From contig QPMI01000477.1 in the NCBI GenBank assembly GCA_004431415.1, positions 558,001 through 622,000 on the forward strand: a DNA stretch of 64,000 nucleotides, read 5' to 3'. The DNA is from Cyanophora paradoxa CCMP329. Its lineage: Eukaryota > Plantae > Glaucophyta. The notes beneath the pieces were generated by a model. It made no database searches. It saw only the letters and a list, made by a program, of their open reading frames with translations, and was not told where the DNA came from. Made by a program: the position numbers and the translations under genes. Within the stretch, counting starts at the first letter, position 1. Each line of letters begins with the position of its first letter. Positions 44,054-64,000 of this stretch are shown here, one piece after another.

Positions 44054-44150
44054 GACACATATGTATAAACTTATTTAAATCCCTCGTTCATCTCGATCGC
44101 TTCGCGATCTCGATTCACTCTGGATTTAAATAAGTTTATACATATGTGTC
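44054..44150. repeat. Terminal hairpin: perfect 29-bp inverted repeat around a 39-nt centre with a small inner stem-loop
   Basis: GACACATATGTATAAACTTATTTAAATCC (44054-44082) is the exact reverse complement of 44122-44150. Inner GATCGC-TTC-GCGATC at 44095-44109. Confidence 0.95.
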
Positions 44151-44460
44151 AAAATTAATACTAAAATACGTATTTATCGATTAAATTCTTTAACTTTTTA
44201 TGCAAACTTTGTATAAATTAATGCAAACTTTGTATTAAAAATGAAAAACGTGTTTAACTTTATGCATATTTACGATTGAATCAATTGATCTTATATCGAT
44301 TGATTATGTTCTTTGTCGATTACATATATAACTGCGATTAATTTGCATTAAACTACTTAAAGAACGAAATAATCGCGATTAAATTGCATAAATTCGCATA
44401 AACTCGATATATCTCTCTTGTATTGAAGTAGACCACCGCCCATTCTGTATCGAAAAACGC

Positions 44461-44726
44461 AAAAAGTGTCACAGAGTTGCATTGTGTCCAATTGAACAAT
44501 CGATGAGATTGCTGATTTGCATTTTTGCACCCAAAAACTGTCACAGAGTTGCATTATCTCCAATTAAACAATCGATTATAATGGGATGGGCACTTTTGCA
44601 CCCAAAAAGTGTCACATAGTTGCATGGTCTCCAATTAAACAATCGATGAGATTGCGGATGTATATTTTAGATCGAAAAGTGTCACAGAGGTGCATGGTCT
44701 CCAATTGAACAATCGATTAGATTGCA
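44461..44726. repeat. Subterminal tandem repeat, 4 copies of about 71 bp
   Basis: TGTCACAGAGTTGCAT...TCCAATT(G/A)AACAATCGAT, with variation, starts at 44467, 44539, 44610 and 44680. Confidence 0.9.
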
Positions 44727-44838
44727 TATGTTCTATAAAACAGAATAATTGAGATCAAGTGTGACAGGTAGTATTCAAATGATATTCAGTAAGAGATAGT
44801 TTTGTTTTTGAGAAAGTCAGTAAGAGGGGTGGAATGTC

Positions 44839-44941
44839 TGTGACGCCTGTGACGGCTGTGACGCCTGTTTTCAGAAGTCTGTCATTTTTGAAAATTTTAA
44901 AAAGTTTGAAAGTAGGTGTCACAGGCGTCACAGGCGTCACA
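44839..44941. promoter_or_regulatory. Origin-like module 1: three 9-bp iterons, 49-bp AT-rich spacer, three inverted iterons
   Basis: (TGTGACG[C/G]C)x3 - TGTTTTCAGAAGTCTGTCATTTTTGAAAATTTTAAAAAGTTTGAAAGTA - (GG[C/T]GTCACA)x3. Confidence 0.7.
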
Positions 44942-45129
44942 CTCAATTAAATTAGGTGTCACAGCGAAATTGCAGACGATATCCAGTAAGACAACTTCGC
45001 ATTTTCAAAAAGGTTGATTAATGGATAGTGTTTTGTAGGTGTCAGAGGTGTCACAAGACGGATTTCAGTAAGACAAGAATATATTCTCGAAAATCTCAGT
45101 AAGAGAAAGAGATTCCATTTTTAATTGGG

Positions 45130-45232
45130 TGTGACGCCTGTGACGGCTGTGACGGCAGTTTTCAGAAGTCTGTCATTTTTGAAAATTTTAAAAAGTTTGA
45201 AAGTAGGCGTCACAGGCGTCACAGGCGTCACA
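45130..45232. promoter_or_regulatory. Origin-like module 2 (direct copy of module 1, 291 bp downstream)
   Basis: Near-identical 103-bp sequence, with extra GGYGTCACA sites following it. Confidence 0.7.
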
Positions 45233-45466
45233 GTCAATTAAAGAGGCGTCACAGTCAATTAAATAGGTGTCACAAGACGGATTTCAGTAAGACCATGTGA
45301 AATTCTGAATTTCTCAGTGTCAACTAACTCGGAAATCGCAATACTCTATGTTTCTCCGATTTCTCCAACCCTGAAAACACACCTGTTATTCTCTCATCTA
45401 TCTCATGAGATACTCTCGTTTCGCCAAAAATTGACAAACGATTTCCCATCATGCTGTAAAGGAAAC

Positions 45467-45733
45467 ATGCCGATTAACCAGCAATATCACAATTTCCATG
45501 GAACTTACATCTTGATTGTGAATAGAATGCAAGATCATTATGAGATCTTTCAAGAGATGGGATTGCGAATTACAAGGAGAACAACCCTTTGTAGATTCTT
45601 GAAAAAGAATGGTGCTAAATGGGATAAGACAATTCGCCGATGGTATACAGAGGATGCTAAGAGTCCCCTTCTTAATATTTTCGAGACAGATGGGGAGTTC
45701 TTCTATCAGGATCGGTTTAATCATTACCAATAG
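45467..45733 (+). CDS. Small viral protein with DUF5710-like GAKWD..RRWY motif (start uncertain)
   Basis: FLKKNGAKWDKTIRRWY in ORF 45317-45733; first ATG at 45467. Confidence 0.5.
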   Translation: MPINQQYHNFHGTYILIVNRMQDHYEIFQEMGLRITRRTTLCRFLKKNGAKWDKTIRRWYTEDAKSPLLNIFETDGEFFYQDRFNHYQ

Positions 45734-46650
45734 CCAAGAACTCCAACTGGAATGAGTTGTCAATCCCATTCATATCTACAAGATCACCATAATAATCTCG
45801 AAACTCAACTGTTAACTCTCTAATGACCAAATTGCGATCGGTTATTTTTATGTATTCACTGTGCTCTCCACTGTGATAAACATACTGTCCAATATCTTTA
45901 CTCAATTGCAGTCTGAGAATTGCTCCTTGATTCTGTGGTTGTGATCTTGGGACAATATTGTGGTTTGTAGCAAATGGGGAGAGTTCTTTAATGTGCATGT
46001 ATAAATACTGTTCTGCATTCATGTCTGTCATCTTGGCTGCTTCTAACTTGTAGTTTAAGCGAGATGCCTCGAATTCATATCCTGTGAATGTTATTCCCCA
46101 TTGGGGATGGTTTGGGGTGATTGGGATTCCTGCAAAATAGAGGAAATTCTCGGGAGCATATAAAGACCTTGCAGACTCTGGGAAATCGTAGTTCTGCTCT
46201 AATGAAGCGACCCAGTCAACAGAACTCACCCCAAGAAGTTTACCCAATCTCTGTGTAGATGCTACCATCTCGAATTGAACATTGCTGTAAAACTCCAATT
46301 TGTAGGAGGTAGGATTGTAGTAGACCTTGAATGCATATGTGAGATTGTTGCTCCCAGTAAATGTGAAATTCAGACCATAATTATATGGACTGGTGACCCC
46401 GAAATGCCCTTGATTAATATAACCACTTGGGAGAAGGAAGACCTGCTTGGTTTCAGAGATGCCTTGGTAGTAGAATCTGACAAGAAGGTGGTCTGTTCCA
46501 ATGGAGTTATAAGATGCTGTTGGGGATCTCTGCATACAAAACTCGACATTCTCTTGGTTTGGTCACTGGGGTTGTGAGTGAAACTTTGTAGGAGTTTTCT
46601 ATTTGTCCATCTGATCGGTCTCTGCTATCTATATTGACCAGCCGAATCAT
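45717..46650 (-). CDS. Minor capsid protein (penton) 1, with one frameshift near 46512
   Basis: ATG at 46650 gives MIRLVNIDSRDR...KVSLTTP...VLYAEIPNS, a typical penton N-terminus. One extra base shifts into ORF 45717-46535 (YNSIG...), which ends in the penton motif IRELTVEFRDYYGDLVDMNGIDNSFQLEF. Confidence 0.85.
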
Positions 46651-46678
46651 TTTAATATATGTTTATAGATAAAAGAAG

Positions 46679-47688
46679 ATGCCTGTGGATTACATCGAAG
46701 TGAGCTCTTTCAATACAATTTCGGGAGATGGACCAACTTCGAGTTTTATTGCTCGCCTCCCCAGCACCTATGAATTTGTGAGAGCAGTAAGACTGGTTTC
46801 AGCAGAATTCTATAACAGCATTCCCATGGTGAGTGGTGAAACCAAAGTAGGAGATGTGACAATAGATAATGCAATCTACCTTTATTGGTCTGAATATTAT
46901 TCTGGTGCAGGAAGCACTGGTATTCCAACTGATCGACCTGCTGCCGATTATGAGCAATGGAAGCACATTGTGATAAGTCGCAGCACACCCATTCAAAACC
47001 ACCAACAACTGGTGAATGTAATTAACTCCAAACTTGCATTGAGAGAGCCACCAGTAGCAATTCGCTGTAAATGGGATGATACACTGAAACGAGTAATATT
47101 CCATTCCACCATACCGTTTTACCTGGCTTTCTCAACTGCAATAAACCCAACCCAGGCGCAGATTCAGAGGTTTTGAGTTCTGCTCGACTGCTTGGTCTTG
47201 ATCCTGGGAGATATGGTAACACCCCAATCCAATCACAAGTTTATAATACTCTGACTGATGGTATCTTTACTGGGTCGATGGTGCATGGTATCATATCTTC
47301 ATTTGAACCTGAAAAGACCAGGGATAGTGTTCTGTTTGTGAGAGTAAAGGAGTTGGGTGATCTGGTTCAATGTGGTGATGGTCTCCTCACTGGATATTTC
47401 CACAAAATCGTTGTTCCAGATAAAGATTATGGTGAGCATGTCGTTTATAATTCGACAGAAGCCCATCCGATTTATAAATACTATAACAAGAATCTGGGAC
47501 TTTCCACATTTTCGGTTGATATTGTGAATGCAGTTAATGAACCAATTGATTTCGAGGGTCAACCTGTCCACCTCACCTTCGAAATTCGATATGGTGATGA
47601 ACCTGCTGGTGATCCTGTGTACGAATACTTCAAGAGGAGAATGGCGGAAACACATCCATCTTATCCTGTTATTGCGAATTTTGCGTAA
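46679..47688 (+). CDS. Minor capsid protein (penton) 2, split by one frameshift near 47130
   Basis: N-terminal SSFIARLPSTYEFVRAVRLVSAEFYNS. C-terminal ARLLG, VLFVRVKEL, LSTFSVDIVNAVNEPIDFEGQPVHLTFEI. Restoring one T joins ORFs 46679-47176 and 47173-47688 (YLAFLNCNKPNPGADSEVLSSARLLG). Confidence 0.8.
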
Positions 47689-47714
47689 AATCAAGGATCA
47701 TTGGTGAATTTTTT

Positions 47715-49115
47715 ATGTTGCAGTATAATAAAAGAGATAATCATGGATATTACTTCGACCCTCCAACGTCTTTCTCTGAAAGAAGCTCTAACAACCCGGA
47801 AGAAGCCAAGGCGTTCTTCTTGGACAACTCTCTCATGCTTGGTCTTGAATCCAAGTCGAAGCCAGTTCTTGTTGTTGTGAACCCAAGCAACACTTTCGAG
47901 AATAATGCTGGAAATCGCATTTCTTTCAAGCTCCCTCGCTACAATTTCTGTGGAAAACTCGAACTTGCGTTTGACCTTCCAGCTGTCACTTTTGCTGGTG
48001 ATACCGACCTTGTTCGCAATGGATACGTTCGCCCAGTTGGTGCTCTTGTCTCTCGACTTGAAATTACCTATGGATCTTACACCTTCCATGTGCCTTCTGA
48101 TTTCCTTGCTCATTTCCCTCTTATCTATTACAGTGAGGATCAACTCGCCAAGAAGAAGCGTTCAATGGGAATGGTTCATGGTATCCCTGCCCATGGAACC
48201 AACCGACTTGGTGGGTCATTTTTCACTGAAATCCCAGTCCCATGGCTAAACCACTACCTACCTCTTGGTGCTCTCTCAGGAGAAATGGTGGTAACTGTCT
48301 GGTTCAAGGATGCTGGAAAGGGTTATGTTGAGACTTCTTATGGTGGTCGTGCTCTTCCTGTTGTTGGTGGAACAGCTGCTGATAAGACAGAGGATGATGG
48401 ACTTGGTGCTACTGCTAATGCTACTCTTGCCCATGTTGGTCAACAAATCACCACTTTTGGAATTGGTGCAACAACAACCCCCGAAATTAAAGTCACTTCT
48501 CCTCGTCTTTACATGCATGCTATTAATGTTTCTGATGAACTGTTTGCTACTGTCATTGAGAAGGTGAAGACCACTGGTATGGCTATTCCTGCTCTGGATA
48601 TTGGTTTTGTTGACAGTGTCAATTTTGCTGCAAAAGGCAATGCTCAACCAAATCGTATTAACCTGTCACAGATCTCTGGTCTTGTCTATGGTCTTCTTGT
48701 TTCAGTTCGTGATGCCGCAGGTATTGATGGTTTCAATGGTTCCCACAGTGTCCTAAAAACGCATGCTAACTCAAAAGACATTACTTTCACTGTTGAAATT
48801 AATGGTCAACGTCTCTATGCTACTGAGCCCATCCCTCTCCTCAAAGGTGCCGAATTAATTGCGGATGCCTTCAAGTGCTCAAATATGGACAAGGTTGCAG
48901 ACAAATATGTCCTCAGTGGTCTACCATTCTGTGTTGATGGAGAGAAAGCGATTCGCAACATTGCCCAGTCTGGCTATGTTGATCTCACGAACTCCTCCTC
49001 CTCTTTCCTCACTCTATACATGCCTTCTGACCAGACAATCACAGTTAATGTTCGTGCTCTCATGCACAGTTTCATTATTGTTGACAAAGATGGGCTCCGA
49101 CGAATTAATCTGTAA
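47715..49115 (+). CDS. Major capsid protein (double jelly-roll), PLV type
   Basis: 466 aa, beta-rich; GNRISFKLPR...LELAFDLP, VSRLEITYGS, EIPVPW..YLPLGAL..EMVVTVWF; lies between the penton and the ATPase. Confidence 0.85.
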   Translation: MLQYNKRDNHGYYFDPPTSFSERSSNNPEEAKAFFLDNSLMLGLESKSKPVLVVVNPSNTFENNAGNRISFKLPRYNFCGKLELAFDLPAVTFAGDTDLVRNGYVRPVGALVSRLEITYGSYTFHVPSDFLAHFPLIYYSEDQLAKKKRSMGMVHGIPAHGTNRLGGSFFTEIPVPWLNHYLPLGALSGEMVVTVWFKDAGKGYVETSYGGRALPVVGGTAADKTEDDGLGATANATLAHVGQQITTFGIGATTTPEIKVTSPRLYMHAINVSDELFATVIEKVKTTGMAIPALDIGFVDSVNFAAKGNAQPNRINLSQISGLVYGLLVSVRDAAGIDGFNGSHSVLKTHANSKDITFTVEINGQRLYATEPIPLLKGAELIADAFKCSNMDKVADKYVLSGLPFCVDGEKAIRNIAQSGYVDLTNSSSSFLTLYMPSDQTITVNVRALMHSFIIVDKDGLRRINL

Positions 49116-49177
49116 AACCATTATCAGTAACGTTTCGTTATTTTTATCTATCTTTAATAAGAAAGATCTACTACGCC

Positions 49178-49936
49178 ATGTCTGACGTTCCCGAATTTAA
49201 TGCTGCTGAGATGATTAAACCCCCTTTTCGCGTATTAGCAATCGGAAAAAGCGCGACGGGCAAGTCAGAAGCCGTAAAATATTGGCTAAAACAACTTCAC
49301 GATGCGAAAAAGTTAGATGTTGTTCTTGTTATAAGTGGGACATCATTCAATCATTTTTGGGATGATGTTGCAACATTACAGCTCGGTAAATGGGATGCGC
49401 CTTACATCGCTAAACTTCTCGATGAAAGACAAGAGAAAATTGAGAAAGGAGAACCCGTTAATCAATTATGTGTTGTTCTCGATGATCTTATAGACAATGA
49501 GATTGTAGACCTTACCCGTGATAAAATTATTGGATCTCTGTATTCGCGCGGCCGCCACTCGGCGATTACAATTTTCTGCATAACTCAGAAACTGCGTAAG
49601 GTTTCTTCAACCATTCGCGTCAATTCGGATTATGCAATGTTCCTCAGTGCCGCCAATCGCAAAGAACTGGAAGCCATTGAAGAAGAATACAATATCATGC
49701 GGGATAAAGACGCTTTCTATAAGATGTTTGAGGAATACGTTCACTCCTATCAGTTTCTCATTTGGAGTTCTGCGAATTATTCGGTGGAATACTACGTTGA
49801 TAAAGCGGAACTCGTTAAAGACTTTAAGTTTCCTCGGTTCCACAGGAAGCCCAAAAAGAAAGAGGACGAATTACCACCTCCACAGAAAGAGGAAGCCCCA
49901 AAGAGGTCAAGAGTGGTGTTCATTCGAATAAACTGA
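49178..49936 (+). CDS. A32-like genome packaging ATPase
   Basis: Walker A IGKSATGKS, Walker B VVLDD, family motif SRGRHSAITIFCITQ, IRVN. Confidence 0.95.
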   Translation: MSDVPEFNAAEMIKPPFRVLAIGKSATGKSEAVKYWLKQLHDAKKLDVVLVISGTSFNHFWDDVATLQLGKWDAPYIAKLLDERQEKIEKGEPVNQLCVVLDDLIDNEIVDLTRDKIIGSLYSRGRHSAITIFCITQKLRKVSSTIRVNSDYAMFLSAANRKELEAIEEEYNIMRDKDAFYKMFEEYVHSYQFLIWSSANYSVEYYVDKAELVKDFKFPRFHRKPKKKEDELPPPQKEEAPKRSRVVFIRIN

Positions 49937-49987
49937 TGCGATATAAGAGAGGTTTATAAAATAATCTCTGCTTCTAATAAATATACA

Positions 49988-50722
49988 ATGCCTTCCAAAC
50001 GCAAAGTTGGTGTTCCTGCTGGTGCTATGTCATATTCTGCATCCTCTGGAACCGGTTCTATTAACACAGAGCCCATGAAATTCAATGGTGTCAATGAAGT
50101 TAAAGCATCACAGCAACAAGAAGATCCCCTCAATGCTGCTTACGAAGAATCACCAGATGATAAAGCTCCCCAAGCTTCCACAAGTGACCAGTTGAATATT
50201 TCGCCCGAAACCTCTAAGATGAAGGCAGTTGGTGAAGGTGCTCGTCGAATTATTGGTGCTGCTGATGACAAAGGACTGGGTCTCCAAGATCTGTCCCTTG
50301 CTCGCAAAGGTGAAGGTGTCTCCAAGGAATCAGACAAGGTAATTCAATCCATGGCTGGTGAGGTGACCTACAAGGTCGCACCTACACAGAATATCCACCG
50401 AATTCCCAAAGCCCAATGGGACGAAATGACTGCGAAACTGAAAGATCTGGAAGCGAAATCCAGTGCTCTTGAACAGTATGTCTCTGAGAAGAAAGAGAGA
50501 GCGAAATTAAAGGAGATGCTGCGAAAGGAGGTGTATAGAATGGGAATCACTGGTCTCCCAGATAAGCAATTCATTGGTAAGAAAGAGACTCAAATTGATG
50601 AGCAGGCAGTTGATGAGATGAAGACCAAAACCCAAAAGGGCACCATTGAACCTGGTGCTACCAAATCAGAGGTCGATAAAGGTGTTGCCCCAACAGTATA
50701 TAAACGACGAGTATGGCTTTAA
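49988..50722 (+). CDS. Viral hypothetical protein (hydrophilic, coiled-coil segment)
   Basis: Intact 244-aa ORF with AT-rich leader, co-oriented with the virion genes. Confidence 0.7.
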   Translation: MPSKRKVGVPAGAMSYSASSGTGSINTEPMKFNGVNEVKASQQQEDPLNAAYEESPDDKAPQASTSDQLNISPETSKMKAVGEGARRIIGAADDKGLGLQDLSLARKGEGVSKESDKVIQSMAGEVTYKVAPTQNIHRIPKAQWDEMTAKLKDLEAKSSALEQYVSEKKERAKLKEMLRKEVYRMGITGLPDKQFIGKKETQIDEQAVDEMKTKTQKGTIEPGATKSEVDKGVAPTVYKRRVWL

Positions 50723-50749
50723 TTATCTCGCATTAAGAGAGAGAGCATC

Positions 50750-50983
50750 ATGGATTTCTTGCGAAAAATCATAGAGATGTTTAATCTCCACATTGTGAGC
50801 AATTGTCACAGTGGCTGCTGTGAAACCAAAGTCGAAATCGAATTCTCTGACACTGAAAGTCATGGATCTGGTGGTAGGCGATTATCCACAGACTCGGTTG
50901 ATTTCGAGGAGCATATTAAGACAGAGACAGTGAGGCGACGCTCTGTATCTTTCACAGATCCGAAATTAAATCTCGGTAATTAA
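50750..50983 (+). CDS. Small viral hypothetical protein with SNCHSGCC motif
   Basis: 77-aa ORF tightly packed after the previous gene. Confidence 0.55.
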   Translation: MDFLRKIIEMFNLHIVSNCHSGCCETKVEIEFSDTESHGSGGRRLSTDSVDFEEHIKTETVRRRSVSFTDPKLNLGN

Positions 50984-51184
50984 TATCGAATGCTCAGTCT
51001 CTCTGAGATCTATGCTATCCTGGACAGGAAATCCGCTGAATATGCAACAGAAGACGCAATAAAAAAGCGTAGACAGGAACTGGTCTCGATCTGCAAAAAA
51101 TGACAAGGGATTTAAGGGTAAGGTGTGTTTGATTGGTGAACCCGGACAAATTATTTTCTCGTCCAAATATAAGGAACATATCAA

Positions 51185-51412
51185 ATGGAAACTGAATCTG
51201 TGGTCGAATTCGAACTTGCAATGAGCGAAATGGATCCCAATGAGAGGAAAAGGTTGTATGACCGCTTGTATTTCCAGAAACGCTATCAAGATGAGGAGTT
51301 TCGTGAATTATATCGTAAAAAGGCACTGGAACGATATTATCGCAGGAAAGCTGCTGAGATGGATCCCAATAATCCAGTAAAACGCCCAGTTGGTCGTCCC
51401 AGGAAATACTGA
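51185..51412 (+). CDS. Small basic protein with C-terminal AT-hook
   Basis: Arg/Tyr/Lys-rich helix ending KRPVGRPRKY. Confidence 0.7.
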   Translation: METESVVEFELAMSEMDPNERKRLYDRLYFQKRYQDEEFRELYRKKALERYYRRKAAEMDPNNPVKRPVGRPRKY

Positions 51413-51606
51413 ACCGCCCCCAAAGTCCCAAATATCCGCTGAATCCTTTTTGTTACCATGATCAATCGACTTTTCGATGGATCATTACCATATATCGAGC
51501 GCCAATCGGAGAACCCAAAGGTATTTAAAGGTTAGCCGCCAAAAAATGACAAGGATCCGGAGAAATTAATTTCTCCATTAAGGATAAGAAGCACCCGATT
51601 GTTGAA

Positions 51607-53970
51607 ATGAACGCTGCCGCCAAGAAATCCCTGAAACGCCTTGTTGAATGGCTTCGTGAAGACGATGTCCTGTCTGAGAATATCGTAATTCCTGTTGATC
51701 CTGATACCAAAAAACCCCTTTTCGCTCATAAAGACGGAACCTGGGATTGGGATAAATTCGATGAAGCCCTGAAATCCGGTAAATATACTGCTTGGGGCAT
51801 TCTCGCTCGTAATATCCTGGTAATTGACTTCGACCAAGAGGAGGATTTCGCCAAATTCGAGGAGCAATTCCCTGATGATTTCGGTGGTGTTAATCCTCTT
51901 GCTAAAACCAAAAAAGGATATCATGCATTCTTCGCTCGACCTGCTGAATTCGACACCATTAAGATCTGGGATAAAGCGGGTGCATTCAAAGGAAACCCCA
52001 AGATCGACTGCAAAACGATTGCATCCACTGGGACTGCTGGGGTGATTAATGTTTGCCCCAGTCCCAACAAAACATGGATCAGAGAGCCATGGGCATCTGA
52101 GTGTGAGTTAAATGAACCCACTGCTGAGTTGCAAAAGTGGATTGTTGAAAACTACGAATTCCCCAAAGGTGCACATTCTTATTATGCAAGGTGCGCTGAG
52201 GAGAATTTGCAGAAACATATTCTTTCTAAACTCGAAGAATTCGGTTTCATCTTGCCCACAATCATCAATGAGACCAAGATGGGATACAATTTCACTGCTG
52301 AGAACAAAGGTTTGGTCTGTCCCTGCTGCAAGGGAAGCCATGACTCGAACAATTGGTATATTGTTCAAGGGAAGGAGAAGGACAAATATATTGTTTCGAG
52401 TTACAGTGCAAACTGCAAGAAGCGACTTATCACAATTCGTGTGAAGGAAGAGACAGATGCGAATATCGAAAATCTGATTGATCGGTCTGCTGGATCTGAT
52501 GGTGCCCATTATGATGTTGCACAGGTTGCCTATCTTGTTCTGCAAGACAAATACAAGTATTCCAACAAGACCTGGTTCAAGTTCAATGATGTATGTGGGA
52601 TTTGGGAGATGGATGAAACTGGGAAGCGAATCTTTCTCTGTTTGAGCTGCAAGGTCTGTCCAGTTTATCTTCAACGTTCTGTTCAACTCGCACAGAGAGC
52701 TCTTCGTGATGAAGAGAACCGCAATTCCTTGGAGGAAAGGTCAAAGATTCTGCTGGGAATTGCTAAGAGCCTCAAACAGACTACATACAGAACTGCACTT
52801 ATGTCTGATCTTTCAGTTCTGTTCAGTGACAAGACCTTTTTCGAGAGACTTGATACTGTTCCCAACATCATTGGGTTCACAAATGGTGTGTTTGACTTGA
52901 ACTCCATGACTTTTCGAAAGGGACTCCCAGATGATATGGTGAGCAAGACTGTCGGCTACGATTATACCACAGAAATCGACCAAGAGAAGGTTGCAAAGAT
53001 TAAATCCATCTATGCAGACATTATTGAATCGGATACAGACCGCGAATTCATGCTGGGATTAATCGCCTATGCCCTGAGTGGTTTGACAGAAAATCAGAGA
53101 TACACTTGCTGGACTGGAATTGGAGCAAATGGGAAATCACTGCTCCAAGAGTTGGTGAAAGACACATTTGGTGAGTATTATGGGTCACTGGACATGACAT
53201 ATTGGACTAAACCCAAGAAGAGTTCGTCAGAGGCTTCCCCAGAACTCGCTTGCATTCTTGGTAAACGAATTGTTTTCAGTAATGAAGCAGAAGATGGTGA
53301 TATGCTTCAACTGAACAAAATCAAACAGGTTACTGGTGGGAATGAGATGAAGGTTCGAGCTCTTTTCAAAGATCTTGTTACATTCATTCCCATGTTCCAG
53401 TTGTTCTTGTCCACAAATGACAACCTGGGAATCAGTAAACCAGATGCAGCAATCCAAAGGCGAATTATCTACTACCGATTCGAAAATGTCTTCAAGGTCG
53501 ATCCTCAGCCTGGTGAGAAGAAAGCAGACACCACTCTAATGCGCCTAATGAAGAATGATGACGATTATAAAATGGCGCATATGTCCATTCTCCTGGAAAT
53601 GTGGAGAACCCATTCTCTCAATGAATTCGTCACCAAACCACCCCAGTCCATTGTTGATCAAGGTGTTGAATATTTCAATGAGAATGACAAGATTGGAGAA
53701 TGGATTCGTGAGAGTTATGAACTCACCAAGAGTCAAGGGGATTTCGCCACAAGTGAGTCCATTATCAGTCACTTTAAGATGGATCACATGGGCAAATCTG
53801 ATGAGAAAATCACAGAATGCACTATCTTGAAGAGACTTCGCGAAGTCTTTAATGTGAAGGCTGAGAGAAAGCGAGTCAATGGTGTTCTTGCTCGTGGCTA
53901 CTTTGGGATCAAAAAGAAGCATAGTCGCAAGTTGGTGGATGACAGTGATGTTGAAGGTGGGGATGAGTAA
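51607..53970 (+). CDS. Primase-polymerase (primpol) / D5-like SF3 helicase fusion
   Basis: AEP motifs ILVIDFD and KTKKGYHAFF; Zn site CPCCKGSH...C; D5_N IGFTNGVFDL; Walker A GIGANGKS; IKQVTGG..MKVRALF; LSTN; AIQRR; wHTH-like tail RGYFGIKKK. Confidence 0.95.
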   Translation: MNAAAKKSLKRLVEWLREDDVLSENIVIPVDPDTKKPLFAHKDGTWDWDKFDEALKSGKYTAWGILARNILVIDFDQEEDFAKFEEQFPDDFGGVNPLAKTKKGYHAFFARPAEFDTIKIWDKAGAFKGNPKIDCKTIASTGTAGVINVCPSPNKTWIREPWASECELNEPTAELQKWIVENYEFPKGAHSYYARCAEENLQKHILSKLEEFGFILPTIINETKMGYNFTAENKGLVCPCCKGSHDSNNWYIVQGKEKDKYIVSSYSANCKKRLITIRVKEETDANIENLIDRSAGSDGAHYDVAQVAYLVLQDKYKYSNKTWFKFNDVCGIWEMDETGKRIFLCLSCKVCPVYLQRSVQLAQRALRDEENRNSLEERSKILLGIAKSLKQTTYRTALMSDLSVLFSDKTFFERLDTVPNIIGFTNGVFDLNSMTFRKGLPDDMVSKTVGYDYTTEIDQEKVAKIKSIYADIIESDTDREFMLGLIAYALSGLTENQRYTCWTGIGANGKSLLQELVKDTFGEYYGSLDMTYWTKPKKSSSEASPELACILGKRIVFSNEAEDGDMLQLNKIKQVTGGNEMKVRALFKDLVTFIPMFQLFLSTNDNLGISKPDAAIQRRIIYYRFENVFKVDPQPGEKKADTTLMRLMKNDDDYKMAHMSILLEMWRTHSLNEFVTKPPQSIVDQGVEYFNENDKIGEWIRESYELTKSQGDFATSESIISHFKMDHMGKSDEKITECTILKRLREVFNVKAERKRVNGVLARGYFGIKKKHSRKLVDDSDVEGGDE

Positions 53971-54069
53971 ACAAAACAGAATCGATTCTAATACTGATTG
54001 AATTTCTTATTTTTTAAAAACCTTACTGTAAATGGTTTGTGTGACAGCTGTGACACCTTTTTAATTGAG

Positions 54070-54172
54070 TGTGACGCCTGTGACGCCTGTGACGCCTACT
54101 TTCAAACTTTTTAAAATTTCAAAAATCTACAAACCTCTGAAAACAGGTGTCACAGGCGTCACAGGCGTCACA
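54070..54172. promoter_or_regulatory. Origin-like module 3 (inverted copy), 100 bp downstream of the primase-helicase gene
   Basis: Reverse complement of modules 1 and 2 with a few differences; two more TGTGACA sites at about 54040-54056. Confidence 0.72.
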
Positions 54173-54323
54173 CCCAATTAACCACAGACTCCCCCTGTGG
54201 GTCGATGACTTTTTCGATTCTTTATCGGACAATATAAAAACGTATCGTAAATCGGTGTGTTTTGACAAAAATTGACTGGCGATTTAAGGGATCGTTGCGT
54301 ATTTCACTTGACTTGGACAGAAA

Positions 54324-54590
54324 ATGGATTATTTTGATGAAATTCGGCAGCAGCTTGTCGAAAAGAATGATATTGCACAGGTGGCGGAATATATTGCAAA
54401 GATCAGAGCAATCAATGGTAGACCCTATCAAAAGAAGCGAGTGTATGCAAGCAGACTCGACACAGTAAATGTATATGTCCCAAAGGCACGAATGTGCGAA
54501 TTATCAGAACCTGAAAAATGGGAAATGCGTTTAAAACGCCCAAAAATAATATGTTCCCTTAAAGTAAAAGATGCCCCGCCAATCCAATAG
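54324..54590 (+). CDS. Small viral hypothetical protein
   Basis: 88-aa ORF overlapping the pPolB start. Confidence 0.45.
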   Translation: MDYFDEIRQQLVEKNDIAQVAEYIAKIRAINGRPYQKKRVYASRLDTVNVYVPKARMCELSEPEKWEMRLKRPKIICSLKVKDAPPIQ

Positions 54591-57500
54591 AATCATCAAA
54601 GAGAAGAAAAACGAAATACTCGGTCTTTTAGGAACCCTTTTAGTCACTGGTGATATTACAGAATTCGAATATGATCGCCAGGCAGCAATCCTGGATAGGA
54701 GACCAAGGTTATCTCAACTCACAGAAATTACAAATCGCCTCTATGATCGTTTTGAGAAAATGGAGGAATTCAGGGATGAAGGTTTAAGGTTGGGAACAAT
54801 TGAACCCGAGATTGAGGATGGGGAAGCAATGAACAAAGCATATTCTTGGTTAACCTATCGAGCAAGAGGGGAGGTTATCCAAGATGGGATTGAATTCTTG
54901 GAGAGAATTGCACCCACTCTACCTCAGAGACTCAGACAGAAACTCCAAGACCTGAGAGCAATTAAAACTCGGTTGACCTTCATTTGTAAATTCACCAAAG
55001 TGAGTGATCCCAGGGTGTGGATCACGAAATTCATTTACAGTGATTACTTTGTCATCACAAGATCACGAAATATTGATGTTGAACTGCGAAATGCCCTTCA
55101 ATCCATGCAGGAGCAGATGATGCAGGTGGACAGTTACAGACTGGATCGCATTGAGATGCTGAGAGTGGTAATAATGTCTTATGCTCCTGTGGGTGGTTGC
55201 TTCTTCTCAACTCCTGAGTGGATTGGATCAAAGAGAGCAACTGTGAATGTCAAGAATATTGATGGTCAAGATTGCTTCAAGTATGCAATCTTGGCTTACC
55301 TGCACCGAAATGATATTAATAAACACAAGAGCAATGAACCCAGCCAGTATAGAAGATGGTTAAACGAACTCAATTTCGAAGGCATCCAGTTTCCAGTTGC
55401 CTGTGATGCAGAGGTTATTGATCGATTTGAGGAGCAGAACCCTGAACTGAGTATCAACATTTATGGTGCAGATAATCAAGCACAGTGTTTCTATCCTCTC
55501 CATCAATCCAGCAACCCGAGGAGAAAGACCAAGATCAACCTTTTATTAATCGAAAACGAAGAGGATGATAGAGGGCATTATATCACCATCATGTCTCTGA
55601 GTAGACTCCTGAAAACCACCTTTGATAAAGCCCATGATGGTCGCATTTATTACTGTGAGACCTGCCTGTCTCGTTTCAGAACTCAGGAGAAGCTGGACAT
55701 TCACTTAGAAGCCAATCGCTGCATTGATTGGAGGGAGAGCAAAGGTAAATGCCCGAAATCTGGAAGTCACATTGCATTTGGGCTTCAACACCTTCGCAAA
55801 ACTGTGTGGCTTCCCACTATCTGCTATGTAAAAATGGACAGTCACTCGGTTCCAATTGATGAGAACCGCAGTAAAAGAGAGGTCAAATCGGTTTCTTTAA
55901 CAGTTGTGATGGGGGATGAGGTGATCTCTCATTATTTCGAGGGATCAGATCCACTTGGTGCTCTGTTTACCACTCTCACAGAGATCAGACCCCAAGTAAT
56001 CCGCACTCTATTCACCAATATTCCAATGCACCCACTCACAGAGGAGCAGAAAGCAAAATACAAGATGACTAAACACTGTTATATCTGTGCTGAACGATTT
56101 ACCCATGAGAATTTCCCAGTGAGAGACCATTGTCATCAAACAGGCGCTTTTATTGGAAAAGCATGTCGGAACTGCAACCTCCACAGGAGAATCTCAAAGC
56201 AAACCAAAGTAGCAATTGTGGTGGATCACATGGATGAATGTGGACACGAAATATTCCGCAAAATTGCACAGCAAGATGATAAACTTCGTGTTGAGATTCT
56301 GAGCAAGAATTTCGACCAATACCTCTCCCTGCAATGGGGCATGTGGAAATTCATAGATGCTTCGCACTTCATGGACTTCCAGGCAGTGGATGCAAGTGAT
56401 CTAATGGGTAAATTCCAGACATTCCGAGAATTGGCGTTTTCCCAATATGGATTGGATCCTGCCCACTATGTTTCGGCTCCTGGATTATCCTGGGATGCAA
56501 TGCTCATTTACACCAGAGCAAAGATTGAGCAGATCAGTGATGTAGGGCAATACGAATTTATTGAGAGGGCAATTCGAGGTGGGTTTGCTACAATGCCTAC
56601 TCGATATGCAAAGGTGGAAAACCCAGATGACCATATAGTTCTCTTGGATGCAAATAATCTGTATGGTTATGCTCTCAGTCAAGAACTGCCCATTGGCGAT
56701 TTTCGATGGGAAGATGTCTCAGAGGCACTTAAAGAGACCCCAGGACGAAGTGCCTTCATTGAAGTTGACCTGGAATACCCACAAACTCTCACAGATCATT
56801 ACGATTTTCCACTTGTAGTGAATAAAGAGCATGTCACCACCGAAATGCTGGGTGGGTATCAAAGAAAGTTACTGGATATCACAGGTGAGAAGATAAGCAA
56901 AGACCCCAAACTCACAGCAACATTCTCACCCAAAAACAACTATGTGATTTCCCAACCTCTCTTGGTCTATCTTGTGAGCAAAGGTATTATAATCACGAAG
57001 GTTCACAGGGTTCTCTCATTTGCAACCTCTGCATTTATGAATAGTTATATTGATCTAAATACGAAATTGAGGCGCCAATCTATGTCCAGATTCGAGAGTG
57101 ACTTCTTTAAATTAATGAACAATGCAATCTATGGTAAATGCCTCGAATCATGCAGGGGTCGCTCTGTGGTAAAGATTGCAAACAGTGAGAAACTCTGCAA
57201 GAAATATGCTGCAAGTCCACTCATCAAGGCAACCAATGTATTAAACGAAAATGCTGTTGCCTTTGAGATGTATTCCAAGCATGTTCACTTAGATAAACCT
57301 GTTGCAATTGGTGCTTTCGTGCTGGATTTTGCGAAACTCCATAATAGCAGGTTCTTTTTTGATGTGGTGAGGAGAACTTGGGAAACAGCAGAGCTACTAT
57401 TCCATGATACAGATTCTTTCTGCCTACTGCTGCATACCAATGATCTAAATAATGAGATGAAGCGAATTTCTGAACACCTGGATTGCAGTAATTATGATCC

Positions 57501-57678
57501 CTCCCACCCTCTCTTTGATAGGAGCAATCGTTTGATTCCAGGTAAATATAAAAACGAGTTTCCCAAAGCTCAGCACTGCGCCGTGTCTCCAAAAAAATAC
57601 CCGCGAAAAAATCAAAAACAAATCAGAAAACAAACCATTCCCAGTAACCCAATCTTGAATATCAGTAAATCTCAGTAA
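54571..57678 (+). CDS. Polinton-type protein-primed family B DNA polymerase, apparently C-terminally truncated at about 57575
   Basis: VNVKN...CFKYAI; C2H2 finger CETC...H; EndoVII-like insert CYIC...VRDHCH..G...AC..CN; GLDPAHY.SAPGLSWDAM; DANNLYG; KLMNNAIYGK; HDTDSF; GKYKNE, after which the ORF runs into repeat DNA. Confidence 0.93.
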   Translation: MPRQSNRIIKEKKNEILGLLGTLLVTGDITEFEYDRQAAILDRRPRLSQLTEITNRLYDRFEKMEEFRDEGLRLGTIEPEIEDGEAMNKAYSWLTYRARGEVIQDGIEFLERIAPTLPQRLRQKLQDLRAIKTRLTFICKFTKVSDPRVWITKFIYSDYFVITRSRNIDVELRNALQSMQEQMMQVDSYRLDRIEMLRVVIMSYAPVGGCFFSTPEWIGSKRATVNVKNIDGQDCFKYAILAYLHRNDINKHKSNEPSQYRRWLNELNFEGIQFPVACDAEVIDRFEEQNPELSINIYGADNQAQCFYPLHQSSNPRRKTKINLLLIENEEDDRGHYITIMSLSRLLKTTFDKAHDGRIYYCETCLSRFRTQEKLDIHLEANRCIDWRESKGKCPKSGSHIAFGLQHLRKTVWLPTICYVKMDSHSVPIDENRSKREVKSVSLTVVMGDEVISHYFEGSDPLGALFTTLTEIRPQVIRTLFTNIPMHPLTEEQKAKYKMTKHCYICAERFTHENFPVRDHCHQTGAFIGKACRNCNLHRRISKQTKVAIVVDHMDECGHEIFRKIAQQDDKLRVEILSKNFDQYLSLQWGMWKFIDASHFMDFQAVDASDLMGKFQTFRELAFSQYGLDPAHYVSAPGLSWDAMLIYTRAKIEQISDVGQYEFIERAIRGGFATMPTRYAKVENPDDHIVLLDANNLYGYALSQELPIGDFRWEDVSEALKETPGRSAFIEVDLEYPQTLTDHYDFPLVVNKEHVTTEMLGGYQRKLLDITGEKISKDPKLTATFSPKNNYVISQPLLVYLVSKGIIITKVHRVLSFATSAFMNSYIDLNTKLRRQSMSRFESDFFKLMNNAIYGKCLESCRGRSVVKIANSEKLCKKYAASPLIKATNVLNENAVAFEMYSKHVHLDKPVAIGAFVLDFAKLHNSRFFFDVVRRTWETAELLFHDTDSFCLLLHTNDLNNEMKRISEHLDCSNYDPSHPLFDRSNRLIPGKYKNEFPKAQHCAVSPKKYPRKNQKQIRKQTIPSNPILNISKSQ

Positions 57679-57966
57679 GCCTCAGTAAGAAACATTGAAT
57701 TAATCGAAGTTATATCATAATCTCGATTAATTATATCTTATCGAAGTTATATCTTTTTTATGCGCCGTGTCTCCAAAACAATTCCCAAGAAAAACAAACC
57801 ATTCACAGTAACCCAATTCCAAATCTCACTAAATCTCAGTAAGCCTCAGTAACAAAAATCGAATTAATCGAAGTTATATCTTAAATCTTATTTATCGAAG
57901 TTATATCATAATCTCGATTAATTATATTTAATCGAAGTTATATCCTTTTCATCCGCCGTGTCTCCC
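57577..57966. repeat. AT-rich tandem duplication (about 184-191 bp units) between the convergent pPolB and integrase genes
   Basis: CGCCGTGTCTCC at 57579, 57763 and 57954; ATCGAAGTTATATC five times; AAATCTCAGTAAGCCTCAGTAA twice. Confidence 0.85.
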
Positions 57967-57971
57967 ATGAT

Positions 57972-59033
57972 TTAGCGTTTCGTTAAACCACTTCTCAAAT
58001 TGTATCTCCTCCGAATTACATTACTCCGATTGGGTTTTATGCCTTCTTTTGCTACCAATCGATTCACTTTATTCGTTTTATTAACCTGCTGAATCCGTTT
58101 TTGTGATGGTATCTTAATGATATCATCTTTATTCACCTTTTGCAATTCTTGTTTCTTAAATCTCCTCTTCACTTCTTTTGTTTCCTCACCATCATTATCT
58201 TCAAGCACTTTGAAACGATTCCTATCAGCCTTTGCAACAGTGTAGACCTTCTGACTGAATTGCGCACCTTCTTTTTCAAACAATCCCTTTGGTTGCAAAA
58301 CTCGAACTGTGTCTCCTGGTTTCACTTGATTAGTATCAGCCTCCTTTACACGATTGTTGTGAACAGTATCCCTCATGTAAATAAATAACTGTTTATCTTC
58401 ATTTGTATACACTGCATTTGGAGAGTCATTTTTCAATGCAGAATGGGGACTGCTATTATACAAGTCAATTACATCACTAAGTAGATCGATCCATTTCGTG
58501 GTTCCCTTTGCTGTCATCGATTTTCTGAGATACTGTTTGAAAGTCCTAGTGAACCTATCAATTATCCCCAGTTTATCTCCTACTGTGATGTGGTCATCCT
58601 TTGCCACATCTGTGTATAGCATTACACCATGTTCACTGCACCAATTTCGGTATACTGCCTGGGAAAACTCATTATCCCCAGAGAGAGCATTAACTTTGCC
58701 TGCTTCTTGCTTGAACCTATTTAAAATGCTCGGGATCTCACTGCTGTTTTTAAAAGGATAAACAAATCCTTTGCGACTAAGTATGTCTACGAAACTAAGC
58801 ATTTTGAAAATGCCATTGTTGGCAGTCTGAAACCCTCTGAAATATGTTATATCGATTTGAAACGATCTAGGCTTTGCCACTATGCGAAGAAACGATTTGG
58901 GTTTCCTTGGTTTCTTGTAAATTTGCTGGAGTTCTGAGTTTTTGAACTTCTTTTTCAACTCTTTTTCATCAAAACTCACTTTTTCATTAATCAGTTTCTG
59001 CCTATACTTTTTGAATGATAATACACTATCCAT
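57972..59033 (-). CDS. Retroviral-like (RVE) integrase of Polinton type
   Basis: FQIDITYF; FVDILSRKG; LSGDNEF; GIIDRFTRTFK; WIDLLSDVIDLYNSSPHSAL..SP; GDTVRV. Confidence 0.93.
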   Translation of the reverse strand: MDSVLSFKKYRQKLINEKVSFDEKELKKKFKNSELQQIYKKPRKPKSFLRIVAKPRSFQIDITYFRGFQTANNGIFKMLSFVDILSRKGFVYPFKNSSEIPSILNRFKQEAGKVNALSGDNEFSQAVYRNWCSEHGVMLYTDVAKDDHITVGDKLGIIDRFTRTFKQYLRKSMTAKGTTKWIDLLSDVIDLYNSSPHSALKNDSPNAVYTNEDKQLFIYMRDTVHNNRVKEADTNQVKPGDTVRVLQPKGLFEKEGAQFSQKVYTVAKADRNRFKVLEDNDGEETKEVKRRFKKQELQKVNKDDIIKIPSQKRIQQVNKTNKVNRLVAKEGIKPNRSNVIRRRYNLRSGLTKR

Positions 59034-62000
59034 TATTGGGCGGCACAGTTACACTTAATATGAGAGAGGAAACAATTTTTGGTAATGTGAGCCACAGCAT
59101 TATTAATTCGATCTACCGAAATATCTTCAAAGTCCATGGCATTGTAGCATCGCAGGCAATGCCCATACTGCTTCCCATATCGCTGCTTGATCCAATCCCA
59201 TGTGATGTAATCATGCTCATCGAATTGTCTGTTTGCTGCTCGGTCCTGATCCTTGTAAGTCGAAATCTTCTCGTTATTCTCTCTTTTCCACACTTTCCAG
59301 TGAGCCATTTCGAAATTATCATGGTAAATAACAACATCATCCAGCCTTGTGGTTCGAGTGAGAGCAACATATAGCCACTTCTTTGAAACAAATGGCGCCC
59401 CAGTTTCGAACACGACTACCCTGTTCCCTTTGCAGCGAATCGTATCACCTTGAACAACATGGCAGGTGTTTGCGTAAGCCAGGGCGAAATGTTTGACTGC
59501 ATCCCTGCTGAGAACAATCTCATCCTTCTTGTTGGCAATGTCAGCAATAATGAAACTGTCCTTTGAGAGCTTGACAATCTTGTAGACAAATCCATTATGA
59601 ACTATCTTCCCACCCTTTGCAATACGAGTCTTTGCAACAACTTTGATCCCGCCAGCATAAATGGAAACATTATCCCCGTAGTTCATTTTGTGAAGGGCTA
59701 GGTTCACCTCTGCACCCTTGCGGTTTGTATACACAATGCCTTTATCTGTCTTTGCCAATTCGTCCACAACCTTGAACCCGTACTTTGCTAGGACCTCACT
59801 TACACTCAAACCTTTCTCGAATAAATCAATTCGAATTTGCTCAACCTTTCTGCGATCTTCCTCAGTCTCATGGCGCTTGTTCACTTGGAGTAACAATTCG
59901 TTGGGGAACAGGCGATGGAGGATATCAAGGTAATACTCATCTTGATCAACACTCATATCCTGAATGGTGGGTTCTGATACGGGTCACCTGTGGCAATGTA
60001 TACCTTATCTGGGAACTGCTCATTCATGATGTGGTCCAGGGCTGCCAGTTCTCCAATCTTAAACTGACAGATCTCATCAATAACAATGCAATCAAATTCT
60101 ACCAAACCAGATGCATTCCCTCCTACGATTTCATCCATGTTCGACTCATCGATTTTGAGATGAAGGGCATCATAGATTGTCTTCACATTTTTCAATCCTT
60201 GCTCTTTCATTTCCTTCACTCGCTTGTTGGTCGGAACAATATAGAGGGGATTTTTGAAACGCTTCCCATATTCAACTGTCATGTGAGTCTTTCCAACTCC
60301 TGGAACTGATCCGAGAAGAACCCATCGTTTTTGTGTAGCCAGCAAATCACAAATCGCGGTTGTGTCATACTCATCAACCACAGAGTGTTTGGTATAACTG
60401 TAGTTCTCGATTTTCACAAAGTCAGTCGCTCTCTCAAACTTTCCGTAACGAATTCGTTTTGCCTCGAGGTCTTTCTTCTCACCTGAAAACTTTTTAGAAA
60501 AATTGGGGCAGCATTTCACACTGAATTTTCCAATATTCTCAAAGGCATTGCGATCGAATGACACTGGGGCAATGGGTTCATAAGCGATCCCATAAACACA
60601 ATCGGTGTTCAAAGCGAGTGGTCGGATCTGCTGTTTAGCGAGTTCGACACACTTCTCATACATACACATCCTCATAATTGACAAGAGGGTAGTGTACAAT
60701 GGCATGAAGCCATCAATGAGCTGCTTTTCTGCTACCTGATTGACATAGTAGATATGGGGTTCGGTCATCTCTTCCTCACACAGAACGAACTCTGTCTCCT
60801 CATAAGTGGCAAGAGTCTCACCAAAGAGGTAAATTTTAACCTCCCTCCGTTCTGTTTCTGGAACTCGATCGCATCGTCTCTGTTGTGGAAAATGGTGGTT
60901 TTCACTCTGCTATTTCGTTGCTTTCCAGTTTGCCCAATTGCACTCACCAAGATCTGCTTCTTATCAACAGGATCGAGGTCGCTATCTAAGATTCGAGCAA
61001 CTGTGTTGCCTGCAAGGTTGGGAATGAGTTTGTAAGGTCGCAGAACCGCTTTGATGGAGATGTCATCCTTGAAATCCTCGAAATGCTTTTTGAGAACCAA
61101 ACCAGGAACGACATTGTACTTGGAATCAATGATCATCCTCTTGTATCTGTTGTAGGTGTTTGCTTCGTACTCCTTTCCGTTCTTGTCTTTGGCTTTGAAA
61201 AAGTATTTGTCGTCCAGTTTCACGTAATAGAAGCTGTATTCCTCGATTTGCTCTGCATCTGTGATTGTCACACTCTTGAAGACATCGAACTTGCTGAGAA
61301 CAGGAACGAATTTGATCATCAAGGCTACAATGTAAGGGTATGCTTTGCACATATCGAACTCGTAAATATCTGTGTTATAGCGAATTTCATCAAAGGTCTC
61401 CTCATCCACATCAAAGAGACCACGAAGGGCAGTCTGCACTCCATTCTTGAATGCATTTATGGTTTGCTCATTGTAAGTACTCTTGTTGGAAGTGTTGATT
61501 AGAGACCTATACATATCCAGATTTAGTTTCTCGAATTTATCTCTGTACTCAGCATTCTTGAAGCTAATCTCGAAAGCTGTTTCCACATCTGTATCGTTAC
61601 CAGGTGGGGTCACGACAACATCCTTATCGTCAATAGTGAAACGAATATGGGTTGCCTTTCCGATTTGGGAGAACCCAGGTTGGACCTGATAATTATGCAC
61701 CACAATGAACTCTCTGAGTAGTTCATCCAGTGAACCACCATAGCAGATTCGAATGCTCGATTGGTTCTTTGGATTGTCAGACCTGACAATTCTCAGAATG
61801 TCATCGGGATTTGTGGCAAACTCCTTGAACCTTCTTTGCTTTATAATCTTGTAACGAGAACTGAGTGGAACATTGGTATCTTTTGGCTTGGAGCCATTGA
61901 AGGACTGTGTGAGAGCCTTAATATTGTGATTTAACAAATACATGTGACCATTCTCAATCTTCACATATGCAACAGAAGGGGTCAAGTGTGTGTTCCTGGT

Positions 62001-63117
62001 CTTGGGCAGGAAAGTCAGTTCAGGGACAGGGGTTCTGTCGTCCTTTCCAATTGTAACCATGCCTAGGCGCAGTGGGTCAAGAACCTTCTCCGAAATGGAC
62101 TTGAAAGAAATGCCCCAATCATCTCCTTCAACAGGGTCTCGCCCATTCACCATCTTAAAGAGTCCGTTGTAAGACCAATCGATTCGCTTGTATTTCCCTT
62201 TGGTCTTAGCCTTCTCAAACGCTCCTCCAAACCATTTGATGAGGACATCGAAAACACACTTCCCAACCTTGAATGAATCACCTTTCAAGAACATTTCCTT
62301 GAATGTGGTGGCTTGGGGGTTCCCTTCGTTTTTAATGAAATTCGAAATAATCATTGGAGCGTTTGTATTGTCTCTGAGGACTTGTTCATTTCTTGGATGT
62401 ATTCTTCATTATCTGTCGTGATGACTCTTTCAATTGTCATAATATCGGGTAGGTATCTTGCTCAATTAGTTTTAGGTAGCGGAAATCTTGATTGGTCGAG
62501 TTAAACTCAATAACTGCTGCAATAAATTCAGCAATGACAGTCCCCTCAACACATGGGAACGTATTGAAGGTGGATTGAACCAGACCGAGAGCATTCAGAA
62601 AAGCTGCCTTGGTACACTGGATACCAAAGGGGCGATTGTTCCGAAGCCTCTTCGATTCAATGTAGGTCACACCATTCTCAGTGACCCTGTTTGCATTTGC
62701 AGGGGCTTGTTCTCCCTCTTGCAACTCACGGAAGAGTCTCACATTCAGGGTGACCATGTTTCCAGGTGAGTTTTCAACAAACTCACGGAGGTTAGCAATC
62801 ATCTGCTGGAAAGGAGTCAAGCGCTTCCGCTCTCTCGCTTGCTCCGCTTTCTTGTTTTGCTTCTCAACATTCTTAGCGGCTCTCTCAGCCCTCTTCTCCT
62901 TCTTCTCCTGCTTGCGATACAAACGAGGCTCTACGATACCTCTCAGTGTATCTCTGATATCAATCAACTTTGGAATTCTAATTGCTTTGAAAGTAAATTC
63001 TCTCAAGAAATAGATATCCTGCTCTCGGGTCAATTTGTCTTCTACTTTTGCTTGCATGTAGTAGCCAAGAATCTCATCCTGCAAATTTTTCGAAATTCGA
63101 TTACTTGGTCGAGGCAT
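59033..63117 (-). pseudogene. Second polymerase gene: divergent PolB + SF1 helicase + HNH fusion broken by about 4 frameshifts (real decay or assembly indels)
   Basis: In order across four ORFs: N-terminal domain (62437-63117); PolB motif A YEFDMCKAYP and motif B KQILVSAIGQTGK (60765-62354); motif C LNTDCV, then Walker A GVGKT, IVIDEICQ, GDPYQ (59953-60768); AYANTCHVVQGDT, LYVALTR and HNH SVDRINNAVAHITKNC...CN (59033-59956). Single-base additions rejoin the frames (NGGEVKIYLFGET near 60843; NPPIQDMSVDQ near 59965). Confidence 0.82.
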
Positions 63118-63616: not shown

Positions 63617-64000
63617 GTTGTCCTTTTCTACTCTCTTAATATATGTTAAGAAATCTTTAAGTAGTTTTTCTGTCTGTATATAGCGAATAAACTCCTGTCA
63701 AATTTTGGTCCCGATTGCAGAGCATCCAGTACGAAAGAAGATGCTGGAAAAATGATAAAGCCACCGATACCCAGAAGGTTCACTTGTCGGCTGCAAGTTT
63801 CTACCACTGAACCCGGTAGAACAGGTGATTAAAGTGATTTACCTATGGATATTTCACTTCGCTCTACAACGCCTCCATAAAAATGAAGAAGTTTTGAGCC
63901 TACGGGATAGGATTGGTTACGTAGCGCTAACAATGTTTGAGAAATTATATTATTCAGATTGATCCTTAACGGCGATAACCGGGTCTTATACCAAGCTTGG

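Follow-up and report, generated by a model that had tools for sequence, protein, structure and literature searches.

Iteron Modules at the Primase-Helicase Gene of a Cyanophora paradoxa Polinton-like Virus as Likely Replication Origins

Results and Discussion

The Locus and Its Iteron Modules

The window analysed here (64,000 nucleotides of Cyanophora paradoxa CCMP329, contig QPMI01000477.1) consists of 44 kb of host DNA followed by what its genes identify as a Polinton-like virus (PLV), which starts at 44055 and extends beyond the window end at 64000. The assignment follows from the capsid protein, A32 ATPase, Prim-Pol/D5/superfamily 3 (SF3) helicase, protein-primed DNA polymerase B (pPolB), RVE-like integrase and split superfamily 1 (SF1) helicase that it encodes; the combination expected of a PLV capsid system, a capsid protein of nucleocytoplasmic large DNA virus (NCLDV)/PLV type with an A32 ATPase, was found among the window genes by profile and cluster matches. 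The subject of this work is a repeated module beside the primase-helicase gene of this virus, which probably serves in its replication. The features concerned are the following:

44839..44941, + strand: iteron module A, 3+3 words, extra word at 44958
45130..45232, + strand: iteron module B, second unit of a tandem duplication of about 290 bp in which A lies in the first; extra words at 45050, 45248 and 45269
54040..54172, - strand: best candidate for the origin, iteron module C (54070-54172), just 3' of the helicase gene, together with two extra words (54040, 54049)
51607..53970, + strand: Prim-Pol/D5_N/SF3 primase-helicase, 787 residues (Pfam and structure model)
53689..53916, + strand: C-terminal winged-helix domain, residues 695-770, predicted to bind the origin (helix-strand-helix-helix-hairpin in the model)
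44457..44738, + strand: four direct repeats of about 71 bp with one GTCACA word each

An initial annotation had placed three 103-bp modules at 44839, 45130 and, reversed, 54070, and these coordinates and the architecture were borne out: each module consists of three 9-bp units, a 49-bp core and three inverted units, with TGTGAC as the core word of the unit. The units had been described as identical, and while there are indeed three per side, not all are exact copies of TGTGACGCC, since the variants TGTGACGGC and TGTGACACC are also present. In the window, TGTGACGCC has 15 exact matches (14 of them in or beside the modules), against 0.54 expected. All 18 core hexamers of modules A, B and C are intact, with variable spacers and core, and extra single words stand on one side of each module. 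The core reaches an A+T content of 77.6%, attained by only 1.5% of the 49-bp windows of the element, and no copy of the module was found in the 44 kb of host DNA of the window.

Modules A and B are 97% identical to each other. They match the reverse complement of C at 90% and 89%, and C read directly at 80% and 77%, so that C is reversed, an orientation that can be read from the core only. The similarity, previously put at about 140 bp, corresponds to an inverted arm of 134 bp at 90% between B and C, but gapped similarity reaches about 230 bp and takes in the extra words and a CAGTAAG motif; a stretch of 47 bp is identical in B and C. The element has 11 copies of CAGTAAG, where 2.5 are expected and shuffled sequences reach at most 7; they cluster beside the modules (44787-45285, 54022) and at the pPolB/integrase junction (57673-57837), and the motif is possibly a second binding site. 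A search with the exact 24-bp repeat gave five matches, none of them a mirror module (four were coding repeats of Thr-Pro-Val type and one lay at a phage contig end), and blastn of the A/B region against annotated phages gave no meaningful match.

Module C was said to follow the stop codon of the primase-helicase gene, and it does, starting 100 bp past the stop (53970) with extra words from 70 bp. This distance and the strong fold of the palindrome would also suit a transcript-end signal of the hairpin polyadenylation kind known from mimivirus and Sputnik, rather than an origin. We regard this as very improbable, as no other gene of the element has such a module downstream, A and B lie 480-780 bp from the end of the nearest long open reading frame (ORF), and the same word stands after helicase genes in prokaryotes.

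The Primase-Helicase and Known Origins

The structure model of the primase-helicase (predicted local distance difference test, pLDDT, 88.5, from 85 sequences) combines a primase like that of pRN1 with an SF3 motor and, at the C-terminus, a winged helix. It matches the fold of SaPI5 PriRep (7om0; SaPI, Staphylococcus aureus pathogenicity island) over residues 279-771 (Z 26.0, root-mean-square deviation, rmsd, 5.6, 407 residues aligned) and that of the pRN1 primase (1rni; Z 13.6, rmsd 3.0, 163 aligned); the African swine fever virus and poxvirus D5 proteins outscore SaPI5 PriRep in the comparison. The C-terminus belongs with Pox_D5 clusters at 0.96, and the winged-helix region can be aligned with the C-termini of the module-linked phage helicases described below. 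Folding the C-terminal domain from its sequence alone gave a poor model (pLDDT 63) that had no wing; it was discarded. The protein thus has what accompanies SaPI/P4-type origins, an SF3 helicase with a C-terminal winged helix and a primase upstream or fused.

Satellites of the SaPI, phage-inducible chromosomal island (PICI) and P4 type live in bacterial hosts, carry a tyrosine integrase and are packaged by a helper phage. Nothing of the kind was found here: the flank is GC-rich and intron-bearing, capsid and ATPase are the element's own, and the integrase is of RVE type. The C-terminal domain of P4 alpha belongs to the Pox_D5 family, and P4 has a second site, crr, with no apparent counterpart in the PLV; the P4 primase is Toprim-type, whereas that of the PLV is Prim-Pol/archaeo-eukaryotic primase (AEP). 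In P4 alpha, as in the PLV protein, primase, helicase and winged-helix origin-binding domain are joined in one protein (available text of PMC4234260).

In the available texts on SaPIs, the origin follows rep immediately and consists of iterons of five or six letters that face each other across an AT-rich region and are bound by the winged helix (PMC9371898; 10.64898/2026.10.17.759575; PMC7581432). At least two opposed iterons on each flank of this AT-rich region are expected of this type, and the modules have 3+3; the position directly downstream of the gene is found for C, while A and B do not adjoin the gene. SaPI5 PriRep5 and its ori, as described in these texts, share with the PLV a fused primase-SF3 protein with C-terminal winged helix and opposed hexamers with an AT-rich core 3' of the gene. 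The PLV differs in that it infects eukaryotes and itself encodes capsid, ATPase, pPolB and RVE integrase, in its compact, symmetric module of 103 bp (about 300 bp for the described SaPI ori), in its word (TGTGAC instead of the TGCAAC(C) given for SaPI) and in its extra copies in the probable terminal repeat. ORF904 of pRN1 likewise combines Prim-Pol, SF3 and winged helix, with a palindrome of about 100 bp shortly after the stop, but its origin is described in the available text without iteron structure (PMC4234260), whereas the PLV arms are built of repeated words.

The likeness to pRN1 raises another reading, in which the origin is recognised as a shape, an extruded stem-loop or cruciform, and the GTG in each word is possibly the primase start. 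Each module does fold as a long hairpin (-30 to -46 kcal/mol, DNA parameters); the primase domain resembles that of pRN1; and in pRN1 a stem-loop of about 100 nt located 54 bp after orf904 is required, with priming at GTG (available text of PMC4234260). Rfam gave five microRNA-precursor matches, all of them far under the gathering score and thus no more than generic hairpins. We nevertheless consider recognition by shape improbable, because the words follow a 9-bp period and single words are found outside the palindrome as well as in the 71-bp repeats, because the arms of A and B contain mismatches, and because the word is kept across distant elements, while pRN stem-loops are described as keeping shape with low sequence conservation; in the same source, pRN1 replication survived GTG mutations (PMC4234260).

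The Same Word and Layout in Other Elements

The pattern TGTGAC-N3-TGTGAC-N45..75-GTCACA-N3-GTCACA, which calls for two words per side, was found at 87 loci in IMG/VR, against 3 matches for a permuted word, which was the only valid control and concerns the number of matches. Linkage was counted on the 80 loci with long flanks, excluding 7 with 300-bp flanks. In 46 of these a D5-type helicase gene stops within -204 to +70 bp of the module (the 46 helicases form 15 clusters at 90% and 8 at 50% identity, the largest cluster having 36 members), and in 9 more a VapE, DUF5906, DUF927 or DUF3987 gene (the last of which we take to be a helicase) ends 25-158 bp upstream, so that 55 of the 80 modules stand at the 3' end of a replicative helicase gene. 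A stricter pattern was matched at 26 loci in prokaryote genomes; 12 of these, two of them archaeal, adjoin a D5, DUF927 or AAA_25 gene at its 3' end.

The TGTGAC word is not lineage-specific but marks primase-helicase replicons of several families, phage as well as chromosomal. The description of the origin as satellite-like is too narrow, as many matches come from phage contigs of 25-60 kb or from genomes of bacteria and archaea, where they adjoin D5, VapE, DUF927, DUF3987 and AAA_25 genes. A separate observation concerns L403, L409, L043, L050, L126 and L133, where TGTGAC modules stand at the 3' end of ORFs of 580-650 residues with no Pfam family (in the L409 ORF only a weak winged helix was seen); these, two archaeal ones among them, are candidates for new initiator proteins.

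Two eukaryotic-virus relatives have the layout with other words: L181, which also encodes an A32 ATPase, has GGCCGT words with a 9-bp period in a module 18 bp after the helicase stop, and L253 has GTAGGG words with a 9-bp period in a module 32 bp after the stop, against a background of 0.003 modules per 800 bp in the generic module scan. In a quick tree, which omits L160, L161 and L189 (no Walker A match), the helicases of the window, L181 and L253 together with 15 unplaced proteins form a weakly supported group (86) that excludes 17 proteins lacking a module. Within the helicase coding region of L253 (210-265) there is also a 9-bp repeat (Val-Thr-Gln/Asp) whose word is unlike that of the downstream module; it looks like a captured iteron array.

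The Origin Reading

Since the domain layout of the protein, the position just 3' of the helicase gene and the linkage of word and layout to helicase genes elsewhere all agree, module C is likely the replication origin of the PLV, with A and B as extra copies that likely lie inside a terminal repeat. The SaPI/P4-type origin proposed in the initial annotation is in this respect supported by these results, apart from the self-contained block attached to it, which is discussed below. By analogy with SaPI Rep/PriRep, we think it probable that the winged-helix domains of an SF3 hexamer would bind the opposed TGTGAC words, that two hexamers would load themselves at the two flanks of the AT-rich core, which they would melt, and that synthesis would be primed by the N-terminal Prim-Pol domain; copies A and B, being terminal, would let the same primase-helicase load close to the genome ends.

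Several results weigh against this reading. The expected linkage of module and helicase gene in related elements was found as the same word in prokaryotic loci and as the layout in L181 and L253, but 142 of 144 related D5 loci with downstream room have no module, many of them being giant virus metagenome-assembled genomes (GVMAGs) or long contigs, i.e., giant-virus core D5 genes, with few true PLVs sampled; in a second set 70 of 71 lacked it, and the sole positive was the L181 contig again. In the quick tree the 11 phage helicases sharing TGTGAC split from the eukaryotic-virus helicases, the window's included, with a Shimodaira-Hasegawa-type branch support (SH-aLRT) of 99. The pattern in opposite orientation, dropped as a negative control when it proved helicase-linked itself, gave 63 loci; by cluster representative, an AAA_25, VapE or DUF5906 gene has its 3' end at 34 of them and a D5 gene its 5' end at 6. 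The pPolB, SF1 helicase and terminal palindrome also present mean that other initiation routes exist in the element, and the pRN1 origin is described, in the available text, as a stem-loop and not as iterons (PMC4234260).

Lastly, 6 of the 26 prokaryote-genome loci are dispersed copies in one Paludibacteraceae genome, and the four of them that have an adjoining long ORF border non-helicase genes. These six similar TGTGAC modules (L390, L397, L400, L401, L408, L414), with no helicase gene detected alongside, are a possible non-autonomous element derived from an origin. By the same token, and with A and B derived from a tandem duplication, the PLV modules might be small non-autonomous repeats or dead origin copies spread within the element without function; this is barely credible, as host DNA of the window has none, C stands at the position seen in the relatives, and every core hexamer has stayed intact despite the variable spacers and core.

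As the helicase tree separates the two sides, the shared TGTGAC word may reflect either convergence or ancient retention. A bolder proposal, which we hold only tentatively and think rather doubtful, is that TGTGAC with a 9-bp period, opposed over a core of about 50 bp, is a shared origin code of bacterial, archaeal and eukaryotic-virus primase-helicases, which the PLV has retained and copied into its termini, helicase and origin forming a cassette that moves between PLVs. If so, phage-type origins could be fired by the helicase of a eukaryotic virus, and vice versa.

The iteron-origin design is known from bacteria, and this work adds to it by surveying the word across domains and by the negative finding on the mini-virus given below. 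In the available literature, inverted repeats have been proposed as origins for PLV primase-helicases (PMC11296320), internal repeats around replicases noted in polisuviruses (10.64898/2026.10.13.758929) and terminal palindromes described (10.64898/2026.07.28.741278). These accounts share with ours inverted repeats as proposed origins, elements with pPolB and D5, and terminal palindromes; what differs in ours is a discrete module, located both 3' of the gene and within the probable terminal repeat. The word 'iteron' is absent from the three main texts, and our literature search found no description of iteron origins in Polinton-like viruses, although bioRxiv supplements may annotate such repeats. 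In the literature found, as far as its available text goes, replication starts of PLVs and virophages with primase-helicases are unmapped and only inverted repeats are proposed. The origin reading comes down to a site of 103 bp, a word of six letters and a domain of 76 residues, and is open to a simple binding assay, in which L181 and L253, having other words, can serve as controls for cross-specificity. Dozens of prokaryotic elements agree with the PLV in word, period and position, which ties small DNA viruses of eukaryotes to an initiation design of phages and plasmids and may also explain the differing behaviour of module-less giant-virus core D5 genes and the D5-like genes of small elements.

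Ends and Copy Number of the Element

At about 44 kb the GC content drops from about 57% to 36-45% (window composition), the flank being GC-rich and intron-bearing. The ends of a PLV are marked by terminal inverted repeats and a target-site duplication in an element of 14-40 kb. On the left side we found:

44055..44149, unstranded: left PLV end with a 95-bp terminal palindrome, at the host/virus GC boundary
44055..45419, unstranded: probable left terminal inverted repeat with modules A and B, ending at a contig branch

The palindrome has internal mismatches and resembles palindromes reported for Halocafeteria elements. Seventeen DNA runs contain 70-73% of sampled words. In the contigs the single-copy host contig stops at 44082, a branch point falls at 45419 in four of four runs, and the depth there decreases about 3-fold, from about 3900-4000 to 1260-1460 (runs X1 and X10). 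From the branching and the depth drop we infer that 45419 is the inner edge of the left terminal repeat, which would place A and B inside it; the right end lies beyond the window, and its repeat is predicted to hold two further mirrored copies of the module. Host-flank contigs have depths of 40-100 and long element contigs 760-1780 (three runs), so that the element is multi-copy, with roughly 10-35 copies depending on the run, contig depth being a rough guide only.

The 9-kb Block Between Modules B and C

The block of 45.1-54.2 kb holds, as noted initially, the capsid, ATPase and primase-helicase genes, and it had been suggested that it could behave as a mini-virus complete in itself or as a segment able to invert, the origins being its terminal repeats. 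The suggestion gains from the capsid, ATPase and replicase lying together, from the B/C inverted arms (134 bp at 90%), which could recombine, from the repeats bracketing replicase modules reported in the available text on polisuviruses (10.64898/2026.10.13.758929), and from one low-depth X1 contig that skips 53930-54357. It is not supported by our results. Pfam detected neither an integrase nor a recombinase in the block, there is no flanking target-site duplication, and B lies inside the probable terminal repeat, whose orientation would also account for the inversion of C relative to A and B. The contigs of four runs have no depth step at 54.2 kb, and depths inside and outside the block are alike (1323-1782 and 1250-1328 in X1; 860-1394 and 798-962 in X5). 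None of the 14 listed joints changes strand, although short-read contigs break in the 47-bp stretch of B and C and so cannot show or exclude inversion. With the left PLV end 1.1 kb to the left of the block, and integrase and pPolB outside it, an independent or invertible block seems highly unlikely, and the best explanation is that it is an internal part of a larger virus.

Other Genes of the Element

The remaining genes are given below:

45717..46535, - strand: ORF, possibly minor-capsid-like (weak); no Pfam match, weak likeness to an ORF of the relative L181
46679..47688, + strand: two ORFs, probably one gene (possibly minor capsid, weak likeness), split by a likely assembly error
47715..49115, + strand: major capsid protein, NCLDV/PLV type (Atlas 0.98 to Capsid_N/Capsid_NCLDV clusters)
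49178..49936, + strand: A32-type packaging ATPase (Pox_A32, E 4e-9)
54571..57678, + strand: pPolB, outside the 9-kb block (DNA_pol_B_2, E 6e-12)
57972..59033, - strand: RVE-type integrase, outside the 9-kb block, below the Pfam cut-off (rve_3 E 0.0025, rve E 0.0097)

The Atlas clusters of the capsid protein carry the family on 12-30% of their members, with a low recognition score. The protein has a single homologue, at 59%, in EukProt, and single-protein locus searches with helicase or capsid gave no relatives in IMG/VR. Near 46511 and 47170 the window differs from the contigs by one base in three of four runs, and the frame breaks at these places are likely assembly errors.

The pPolB frame (54571-57965 region) ends about 25 residues past a KxY-like motif and may lack the thumb region; its end falls within a patch of 164- and 191-bp duplications bearing CAGTAAG words. 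The integrase and SF1 genes lie on the opposite strand, facing pPolB. The SF1 helicase is split over two frames (59033-62354) and is preceded by a 529-residue ORF with no Pfam match, which may be the N-terminal part of the same protein. In the host flank, 12702-13800 contains perfect duplications of 300 bp and 144 bp, possibly an assembly artefact.

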